Virus record (IMG/VR): IMGVR_UViG_2850784384_000006
Direction: 5' to 3' (one strand)
DNA: 25,436 nucleotides
Origin: a virus
Lineage: Duplodnaviria > Heunggongvirae > Uroviricota > Caudoviricetes
The notes under the pieces are model-generated. The model did no database searches. It worked only from the letters and a program-made list of their open reading frames with translations, and was not told where the DNA came from. Numbering within the stretch: the stretch's first letter is position 1; the number at the start of each line of letters is the position of its first letter. Below are positions 7,974 to 24,679 of the stretch, one piece after another. The translations under genes and the position numbers were made by a program.

Positions 7974-8182
7974 ATCATCCCCCGAATGCTGATGTAACGC
8001 TTCCGCCCAGCTGGCTCAGCAAGGATTCGTTTGGCGGTGTAGTGGATTTCATCCCGGAATTCTGCACCGCCGATGTGCTGACGCCATCCTGCATATCTGA
8101 TTTATCTGCATGAAGTGGCACACTGAATTTGGCCACCTGAACAGAGGTGATATGCTCACCTCAGAACAACACAGGTGCTCCA

Positions 8183-8485
8183 ATGAAAAAAAGAAATTTT
8201 AGCGCAGAGTTTAAACGCGAATCCGCTCAACTGGTTGTTGACCAGAAATACACGGTGGCAGATGCCGCCAAAGCTATGGATGTTGGCCTTTCCACAATGA
8301 CAAGATGGGTCAAACAACTGCGTGATGAGCGTCAGGGCAAAACACCAAAAGCCTCCCCCATTACCCCGGAACAAATTGAAATCCGTGAGCTCAGGAAAAA
8401 GCTACAACGCATTGAAATGGAGAATGAAATATTAAAAAAGGCTACCGCGCTCTTGATGTCAGACTCCCTGAACAGTTCTCGATAA
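8183..8485 (+). CDS. IS911-like OrfA (helix-turn-helix transposition regulator)
   Basis: 100-aa product [21 protein letters not shown]...[23 protein letters not shown] with leucine-zipper-like end. Internal Met chosen; the track ORF starts 12 codons earlier at 8147. Confidence 0.85.
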
Positions 8486-8511
8486 TCGGGAAACTCAGAG
8501 CGCATTATCCT

Positions 8512-9351
8512 GTGGTCACACTCTGCCATGTGTTCGGGGTTCATCGCAGCAGCTACAGATACTGGAAAAACCGTCCTGAAAAACCAGACGGCAGACGGGC
8601 TGTATTACGCAGTCAGGTACTTGAGCTACATGGCATCAGCCACGGTTCGGCCGGAGCAAGAAGCATCGCCACAATGGCAACCCGGAGAGGCTACCAGATG
8701 GGACGCTGGCTTGCTGGCAGGCTCATGAAAGAGCTGGGGCTGGTCAGCTGTCAGCAGCCGACTCACCGGTATAAACGTGGTGGTCATGAACATGTTGCTA
8801 TCCCTAACTACCTTGAAAGGCAGTTCGCCGTGACCGAGCCAAATCAGGTGTGGTGCGGTGATGTGACCTATATCTGGACGGGTAAGCGCTGGGCGTACCT
8901 CGCCGTTGTTCTCGACCTGTTCGCAAGAAAACCAGTGGGCTGGGCCATGTCGTTCTCGCCGGACAGCAGGCTCACCATGAAAGCGCTGGAAATGGCATGG
9001 GAAACCCGTGGTAAGCCCGGCGGGGTGATGTTCCACAGCGATCAGGGCAGTCATTATACGAGCAGGCAGTTCCGGCAGTTATTGTGGCGATACCAGATCA
9101 GACAGAGTATGAGCCGGCGCGGAAACTGCTGGGATAACAGCCCAATGGAACGCTTCTTCAGGAGTCTGAAGAACGAATGGATGCCGGTGGTGGGTTACGT
9201 AAGCTTCAGCGAGGCAGCTCACGCCATAACGGACTATATCGTTGGATATTACAGTGCACTAAGACCGCACGAATATAACGGTGGGTTACCCCCAAACGAA
9301 TCGGAAAATCGATACTGGAAAAACTCTAACTCGGTGGCCAGTTTTTGTTGA
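8512..9351 (+). CDS. IS911-like OrfB (DDE transposase catalytic domain; normally expressed as OrfAB fusion by -1 frameshift)
   Basis: 279-aa ORF in the -1 frame relative to orfA with DDE/integrase-core-like motifs (...[10 protein letters not shown]...); slippery heptamer A AAA AAG at about 8434..8440 near the end of orfA. Confidence 0.8.
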
Positions 9352-9828
9352 CCACTTCAGCAACGCTAACGCTCTGCGTCTGCGACATGATCACTTCACG
9401 CAGGGTAAGCGTGCAGTTCAGCACGTTCTCGCTGGTTTTATCCGTTGTCACCTCGATGGCTCGCACCAGCATATTGCTGTAAACCCGCTTTCCGGTCACT
9501 ACATCGAACGGCACCCTAGAGGACTGGAGATCCAGTAGTTGCTGATAGGTCTCTTTCGGGCTAAGTCCGGCGCTGAGGCCGATTGACGATGTATCAATGA
9601 AGTCCAGCAACGAACCGCCACCTGCGAAGCCGCATTCCATCGTGACTTCGCTGGGGCGCTTATACGCATGATCGGCGATGAAACCCGACGCGCTATTCGT
9701 TGTTGGCTTCTCCACCGGGTGCTCAGTAATTTCGAGCGCATCAGAATGCTTTTCAGAAACAACCACGCTGGGGATTAATATTCCAATTCGCCGGGATTGC
9801 TGGCGAAAAATTGCTGATAAAATATCCA

Positions 9829-23430: not shown

Positions 23431-23502
23431 TGAAGTGGCACACTGAATTTGGCCACCTGAACAGAGGTGATATGCTCACCTCAGAACAACACAGGTGCTC
23501 CA

Positions 23503-23805
23503 ATGAAAAAAAGAAATTTTAGCGCAGAGTTTAAACGCGAATCCGCTCAACTGGTTGTTGACCAGAAATACACGGTGGCAGATGCCGCCAAAGCTATGGA
23601 TGTTGGCCTTTCCACAATGACAAGATGGGTCAAACAACTGCGTGATGAGCGTCAGGGCAAAACACCAAAAGCCTCCCCCATTACCCCGGAACAAATTGAA
23701 ATCCGTGAGCTCAGGAAAAAGCTACAACGCATTGAAATGGAGAATGAAATATTAAAAAAGGCTACCGCGCTCTTGATGTCAGACTCCCTGAACAGTTCTC
23801 GATAA
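23503..23805 (+). CDS. IS911-like OrfA, copy 2
   Basis: Identical translation to copy 1 OrfA. Confidence 0.85.
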
Positions 23806-23831
23806 TCGGGAAACTCAGAGCGCATTATCCT

Positions 23832-24671
23832 GTGGTCACACTCTGCCATGTGTTCGGGGTTCATCGCAGCAGCTACAGATACTGGAAAAACCGTCCTGAA
23901 AAACCAGACGGCAGACGGGCTGTATTACGCAGTCAGGTACTTGAGCTACATGGCATCAGCCACGGTTCGGCCGGAGCAAGAAGCATCGCCACAATGGCAA
24001 CCCGGAGAGGCTACCAGATGGGACGCTGGCTTGCTGGCAGGCTCATGAAAGAGCTGGGGCTGGTCAGCTGTCAGCAGCCGACTCACCGGTATAAACGTGG
24101 TGGTCATGAACATGTTGCTATCCCTAACTACCTTGAAAGGCAGTTCGCCGTGACCGAGCCAAATCAGGTGTGGTGCGGTGATGTGACCTATATCTGGACG
24201 GGTAAGCGCTGGGCGTACCTCGCCGTTGTTCTCGACCTGTTCGCAAGAAAACCAGTGGGCTGGGCCATGTCGTTCTCGCCGGACAGCAGGCTCACCATGA
24301 AAGCGCTGGAAATGGCATGGGAAACCCGTGGTAAGCCCGGCGGGGTGATGTTCCACAGCGATCAGGGCAGTCATTATACGAGCAGGCAGTTCCGGCAGTT
24401 ATTGTGGCGATACCAGATCAGACAGAGTATGAGCCGGCGCGGAAACTGCTGGGATAACAGCCCAATGGAACGCTTCTTCAGGAGTCTGAAGAACGAATGG
24501 ATGCCGGTGGTGGGTTACGTAAGCTTCAGCGAGGCAGCTCACGCCATAACGGACTATATCGTTGGATATTACAGCGCACTAAGACCGCACGAATATAACG
24601 GTGGGTTACCCCCAAACGAATCGGAAAATCGATACTGGAAAAACTCTAACTCGGTGGCCAGTTTTTGTTGA
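23832..24671 (+). CDS. IS911-like OrfB, copy 2 (expressed by -1 frameshift as OrfAB)
   Basis: Identical translation to copy 1 OrfB; A AAA AAG heptamer present at about 23754..23760. Confidence 0.8.
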
Positions 24672-24679
24672 CCACTTCA

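Follow-up and report, generated by a model that had tools for sequence, protein, structure and literature searches.

Two IS911 copies around the head and tail genes of the oac1b prophage of Shigella flexneri FDAARGOS_535 are very probably independent insertions

Do two near-identical insertion sequences (ISs) on either side of a block of phage head and tail genes form a composite transposon, or did the two copies arrive separately? The question is raised by a 25,436-nt stretch of DNA (IMG/VR virus record IMGVR_UViG_2850784384_000006; hereafter the window), which is part of the chromosome of Shigella flexneri FDAARGOS_535 (CP034060.1) and carries such a pair of direct repeats, resembling IS911. 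IS911 belongs to the IS3 group of the IS3 family and was first described in Shigella dysenteriae. We consider it very probable that the two repeats are independent IS911 insertions in the defective oac1b prophage of serotype 1b.

Comparison of the window with itself in register gave two direct repeats of 1249 bp each (8111-9359 and 23431-24679) at an offset of 15320 bp. At this offset the identity spans 8111-9254 and 9256-9359, with a sole mismatch between them (9255 T versus 24575 C), and it stops at both outer edges exactly where a preliminary description of the window had placed them. That description had found a single difference by eye; comparison over the full length gave no other. A chance origin is impossible for a repeat of 1249 bp at 99.9% identity. 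The variable position is the third base of a serine codon in the orfB frame (AGT/AGC) and is synonymous, so that the reconstructed OrfAB proteins of the two copies are identical. Each copy begins with TGAAGTGG and ends with CCACTTCA, giving TG...CA termini, and its left and right inverted repeats (IRL and IRR) are imperfect, with 24 of 36 positions matching without gaps; the inverted repeats of IS911 are 36 bp long (PMC2909936). The orfA gene (100 amino acids, ATG at 8183) is intact in both copies, and in both it is followed by an A AAA AAG heptamer in X XXY YYZ phase (8434-8440 in copy 1) and by orfB in the -1 frame, which runs to 9351. The heptamer has GGAG upstream, AUU directly before it and a branched RNA fold downstream (z = -2.1), in agreement with the recoding signals described for IS911. 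An Rfam scan of the window at gathering thresholds gave no match, curated frameshift-element families included. We predict -1 frameshifting to OrfAB in both copies.

The OrfAB protein assembled in silico (389 amino acids) matches the NF033516 IS3 family transposase profile with 380.6 bits (the cut-off is 160 bits) over positions 1-368 of 369, and it contains the Pfam domains rve (DDE) and HTH_21. Plasmids of S. flexneri, pCP301 among them, carry elements annotated as 'IS3-like element IS911 family transposase' or 'IS911 ORF1/ORF2', and the copies match these over their full length with 100% or 99.9% identity. Because of this identity and the full-length transposase match we assign the repeats to IS911 proper, one step further than the label 'IS911-like' in the preliminary description. 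Its statement that orfA, orfB and the heptamer are intact in both copies also holds, as the heptamer is in phase, the transposase match is full length and there is no inactivating difference. The TG...CA ends, 36-bp imperfect inverted repeats, 100-residue OrfA, A AAA AAG -1 frameshift and DDE (rve) OrfAB, together with a 3-bp duplication at copy 1, are all shared with the reference IS911. The two differ in length: the IS911 prototype is 1250 bp long, compared with 1249 bp here. The OrfAB encoded here (8183-9351 and 23503-24671) has 389 residues, compared with the published 382 (PMC2909936). A 1-bp difference near the 3' end that alters the C-terminal tail is the likely source of this discrepancy. 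An alternative frame reads ...LEKL followed by a stop codon ~20 nt upstream of the OrfAB end.

The locus itself can be matched to a published one. In the serotype 1b prophage the order is torT, IS1, oac1b, tail and baseplate, tape measure, head, portal, TerL, TerS, IS911, HK022-like int and truncated ymcA (PMC3630932). The recombination, immunity, replication and lysis genes are all missing from the published prophage of strain 1997020 (Sun et al., 2012), the induction of which was unsuccessful, and a single IS911 was reported in the 2012 locus (PMC3630932). The locus was compared with this description and matched it in the placing of oac1b by IS1, the contractile-tail module, an IS911 between TerS and the HK022-like int, the truncated ymcA past int and the missing early genes; torT lies outside the window, and the match on torT rests on the published description. 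The oac gene was identified from its context and from comparison with Sf6 Oac. Judged by these features, the locus is the oac1b-carrying cryptic prophage of S. flexneri serotype 1b, already published (PMC3630932). Both share the gene order and lack the early region. The one IS911 of the published locus corresponds to copy 2 (23431-24679); FDAARGOS_535 has, in addition, copy 1 (8111-9359) within a Dit-like baseplate gene and has lost 146 bp from the spike and gp25-like genes. That the prophage is already dead and published, and that copy 2 sits at a deletion junction between truncated HNH and int genes, goes beyond the preliminary description.

Copy 2, with ATG to its left and AAT to its right, shows no target-site duplication because it lies at this deletion junction. 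On its left, the HNH endonuclease gene lacks ~182 nt of its 5' end, and the alignment to an intact Escherichia coli relative stops at 23430, inside the HNH gene of the relative. On its right, where the junction reads CCACTTCA followed directly by AATCCGAAG, the sequence starts at nt 318 of the 1074-nt int gene, the first 317 nt being missing in alignment to intact int genes. A 113-residue open reading frame (ORF) at 23115-23456 on the minus strand is the HNH fragment borrowing a GTG start inside the IRL of copy 2. In intact relatives the interval between HNH and int contains Rha, lysis, Q, nin, replication, cII/cro/cI, recombination and xis genes, and the lost segment is estimated, by summing over mosaic relatives, at ~18-20 kb. 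The same HNH'-IS911-'int junction is present in LR213452.1 and CP097831.1. Junction ORFs were looked up in an indexed collection of assemblies, with contigs read from the 24 blocks with the longest contigs per look-up; 40 blocks of this collection contain the copy-2 junction ORF, and all 24 contigs read carry it, with IS911 abutting HNH'. Copy 2 thus appears to be an older element, shared by the lineage, that marks the loss of the early region. An IS911-associated event would have removed the DNA from HNH to about codon 107 of int, and with it the lysis, antitermination, nin, replication, immunity, recombination and xis genes, either by recombination between two earlier IS911 copies or by a transposase-mediated adjacent deletion. 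The event would have left one IS without a target duplication, a scar that the lineage would then have inherited. If IS-IS recombination made this scar, the fate predicted in the preliminary description for the present pair, deletion through homologous recombination, has already happened once at this locus.

Copy 1 is flanked by a 3-bp duplication, GCA at 8108-8110 on the left and GCA at 9360-9362 on the right, and its left junction reads ...TTTATCTGCA followed by TGAAGTGG. Removing the IS and one GCA in silico restores a 200-residue Dit-like baseplate ORF. The empty site is found in S. flexneri CP097828.1, which has GCA once and flanks that are 100% identical over 3.1 and 3.6 kb. Thirty contigs with an identical neighbouring 354-residue protein were read: 28 have the intact 200-residue Dit-like gene (two groups, representatives L012 and L013), and an IS in this gene was seen only in CP034060.1. 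Across the indexed collection, the chimeric copy-1 junction ORF was likewise found in one assembly only (CP034060.1), to which the exact TerL protein of the window maps as well. Since the copy-2 junction ORF was recovered from 40 blocks, with many draft contigs among them, the method is able to detect such junctions in drafts. The population comparison proposed in the preliminary description therefore separates the two copies: copy 1 is found only in CP034060.1, and copy 2 is common to every other S. flexneri contig examined. Copy 1 is best read as a recent, strain-specific and previously undescribed insertion, which would have arisen in FDAARGOS_535 by copy-out/paste-in transposition into the Dit-like gene, with the 3-bp duplication typical of IS911. 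Annotation pipelines call both junction ORFs as genes: the one at 9326-9829 on the minus strand, a Dit fragment ending inside the IRR of copy 1, and the one at 23115-23456. The two are useful as exact-match markers of each insertion in population data.

These flanks bear directly on the composite transposon, that is, on the idea that the 16.6-kb IS911-head/tail-IS911 segment was inserted, or is still mobile, as a unit through the IRL of copy 1 and the IRR of copy 2. Both ISs are intact and in direct orientation with the outer inverted repeats present, and from the established mechanism of IS911 the OrfAB protein could in principle pair the outer ends (PMC2909936). However, the sequences that flank the unit, GCA and AAT, do not form a duplication, and copy 1 is flanked by a GCA/GCA pair of its own; in other strains the locus is otherwise identical but contains only copy 2, and the empty site in CP097828.1 refutes insertion as a unit. 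The exact TerL protein was seen only in this chromosomal context, no E. coli genome (of 5,426 complete genomes) or phage was found with the bracketed unit, and the structural genes that make up the cargo are disabled and have no selectable function. A composite transposon is thus highly improbable here. The pair shares with classical composite transposons of the Tn9, Tn10 and Tn5 type the two complete IS copies around a cargo and the intact outer ends; unlike them, it has no duplication around the unit, its two ISs were acquired at different times, the unit was seen nowhere else and its cargo offers nothing that could be selected. Of the 'composite-transposon-like unit' in the preliminary description, the two intact direct copies with intact outer ends remain, while a history of insertion as a unit does not, given the missing outer duplication and the strains with copy 2 alone. 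The bracketing of head and tail genes that it described is also correct in part: the segment between the copies (9360-23430, 14071 bp) carries minus-strand tape measure, tail tube and sheath, head, portal, TerL and TerS genes, but the tail genes continue to the left (1686-7973), and the whole morphogenesis module is therefore not bracketed.

We give next to no credence to the explanation that one of the copies is an assembly artefact, a repeat misplaced or duplicated in CP034060.1. IS elements are a classic source of misassembly and copy 1 occurs in one assembly only; on the other hand, copy 1 splits a gene precisely and with a 3-bp duplication of the length expected for IS911, which assemblers do not make. 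The allele of copy 1 differs from that of copy 2, and it is therefore not a duplicated stretch of the same reads, and copy 2 is present independently in several complete genomes, in many drafts and in the 2012 paper.

The one variable site is informative about the donor of copy 1. C is present in copy 2, in its orthologues in LR213452.1 and CP097831.1, and in one plasmid copy in FDAARGOS_535, T is present on other S. flexneri plasmids, in IS911 copies that match copy 1 at 100% identity, and the prophage DNA differs between strains by 0-1 substitutions over 9 kb. These observations make a donor other than copy 2 more likely, and the alleles suggest that it was probably another IS911 with the T allele. 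The alternative is that copy 1 derives from copy 2, by a local hop over 15 kb, and that the T/C difference arose later. A local hop would fit two near-identical copies that lie close together, and copy-out/paste-in transposition, an established mechanism, keeps the donor in place (PMC2909936). We nevertheless think it unlikely. The copy-2 orthologues in other strains carry C, making C ancestral at the copy-2 site; other IS911 copies of S. flexneri already carry T, so that a T donor requires no extra mutation; and with 0-1 substitutions per 9 kb of flanking prophage DNA a new substitution within 1.25 kb over the same brief time is unlikely. Across 16115-25436 the sole substitution relative to CP097831.1 and LR213452.1 is at 22496, in the TerL gene (A here and G elsewhere), and from this single substitution it follows that the strains diverged very recently.

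Several points weigh against parts of this account of two separate insertions. The presence of copy 1 rests on the assembled sequence of CP034060.1, and its strain-specific status on the assemblies indexed in the collection, with the longest-contig blocks read. A copy made from copy 2 plus one mutation may account for the donor. The size of the lost segment at copy 2 was estimated from mosaic E. coli relatives at ~94% identity rather than from the true ancestor, and IS-IS recombination and adjacent deletion would leave the same scar, the sequence fitting both.

The other features of the window are collected with the two IS911 copies in Table 1. The structural module is 92-95% identical to those of E. 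coli lambdoid prophages and of phages such as Omnitron and vB_EcoM, the DNA identity to phage Omnitron and the vB_EcoM phages being 92-93% for the genes at 9829-23164. Contractile-tail lambdoid prophages of the SEN34/Omnitron type (in E. coli LR-71-1, YZ22PE106 and 873.10) have the same gene order at 92-95% identity over the structural module; these E. coli relatives retain the HNH, Rha, lysis, Q, nin, replication and immunity genes and have IS911 at neither site. Among the 5,426 complete genomes of the E. coli collection no record covers at least 80% of the window, because the source is Shigella, which lies outside that collection. A second strain-specific change was seen in comparison with CP097828.1: the 146-bp deletion, at an 8-bp microhomology (GGCGACAC), fuses the spike gene (gpV-like, 246 amino acids) to the gp25-like sheath-initiator gene, giving a 315-residue chimeric ORF (4760-5707). 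It is a second fresh inactivating lesion in FDAARGOS_535, beside Dit::IS911. The prophage was already dead before copy 1 arrived, as judged from the missing early genes, the truncated int and the missing xis. The oac1b gene, which adjoins IS1 outside the IS911 bracket, is the sole prophage gene with a known selected function. IS expansion in DNA free of selection would have given the 'composite' as a by-product, with only oac1b maintained.

Table 1. Features of the 25,436-nt window; coordinates count from its first letter
Feature	Coordinates	Strand	Evidence
IS911 copy 1, T at 9255: IRL 8111-8146, orfA 8183-8485, heptamer 8434-8440, orfB frame to 9351, IRR 9324-9359	8111-9359	+	
IS911 copy 2, C at 24575; OrfAB frame 23503-24671; no target-site duplication (ATG left, AAT right)	23431-24679	+	
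Dit-like gene, 3' fragment	7975-8110	-	ORF after in-silico excision; empty site in CP097828.1
Dit-like gene, 5' fragment; frame runs into the IS as a 167-residue chimeric ORF (9326-9829)	9360-9829	-	Pfam Dit_like
HNH endonuclease gene fragment	23115-23430	-	Pfam HNH_3; alignment to intact E. coli relative
HK022-type tyrosine integrase gene fragment	24680-25436	+	Positions 318-1074 of intact int; 98.4% amino-acid identity to HK022 Int; Pfam Phage_integrase
IS1, right-hand 331 bp, cut by the window edge, between torT and oac1b	1-331	-	Exact terminal-repeat match at 309-331; IS1 transposase gene called there in CP034060.1; IS1 reported in PMC3630932
oac1b, O-antigen O-acetyltransferase, 333 amino acids	394-1395	+	Pfam Acyl_transf_3; 90.7% amino-acid identity to Sf6 Oac; PMC3630932
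Tail-fibre assembly, tail-fibre, wedge, baseplate J, spike, hub and plug genes, left of the bracket	1686-7973	-	Pfam; PGAP names in E. coli relatives
SLT-domain tape measure, tail chaperone, tube, sheath, terminator, adaptor, major capsid, cement, scaffold-like, Mu F-like minor head, portal, TerL and TerS genes	9829-23164	-	Pfam; PGAP names
Junction of 146-bp deletion, 8-bp microhomology	5024-5031	.	Comparison with otherwise 100% identical CP097828.1

The window begins inside IS1, the terminal repeat of which ends at 331, and ends exactly at the stop codon of the integrase gene; it thus resembles a predicted prophage interval rather than a natural unit. A tRNA scan of the window found none, and there is hence no tRNA-type attachment site in the window. 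The 2012 paper called the insertion site unusual and found no att site (PMC3630932). The E. coli 873.10 prophage has the same chromosomal position, next to torT; it is related and apparently complete, with its tail-fibre end adjoining torT (L020 15961-18051). In CP034060.1 the truncated ymcA lies only ~40 bp beyond the int stop codon (L005 7081-7121). The HK022-type int, together with the 873.10 relative adjoining torT, suggests that the prophage integrated in an ordinary way in the torS-torT region and that the DNA from torS through part of ymcA was lost afterwards. This would be a minor clarification of PMC3630932: an ordinary integration and then deletions, rather than an unusual site.

S. 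flexneri has another temperate phage with an oac gene and an IS911, Sf6, in which the IS lies in the nin region and deletions of IS911 plus flanking DNA arise readily (PMC5630979). Sf6, a P22-like podovirus, is functional and its single IS911 lies in a dispensable gene, whereas the present locus is a dead prophage of the myovirus type, and the two are related only by oac and IS911. The IS911 pair described here is a plausible substrate for RecA-mediated deletion of 15.3 kb of dispensable head and tail DNA through 1.25 kb of homology, a deletion step that we infer. After recombination between the two copies, the Dit 3' fragment and 'int would be separated by one remaining IS911; the change would probably be neutral, and since oac1b lies outside the bracket the predicted 15.3-kb deletion polymorphism would have no effect on oac1b or on serotype. 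There is very little chance of anything more active, such as a mobile composite or a deletion and amplification hotspot that moves or reshuffles a near-complete head-tail module between Shigella replicons, with copy 1 perhaps adaptive (for example in silencing residual tail-gene expression).

For sequence data the consequences are practical. Draft assemblies do break at IS911, the difficulty for short-read assembly that the preliminary description anticipated, and serotype 1b strains sequenced with short reads will yield contigs broken at these IS copies; the 'head-tail module' listed by prophage-prediction tools will be a non-functional one. IS911 is among five IS families whose expansion in all Shigella species has brought gene loss and wide variation from strain to strain (PMC7373316). 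What is seen here is the ordinary course of IS expansion and prophage decay in Shigella, at a locus that had already been published, to which one undescribed insertion is added at the level of the strain. Its significance is mainly one of bookkeeping: one more strain-specific IS911 insertion, and a small deletion, in a remnant kept only for the serotype-converting oac1b.

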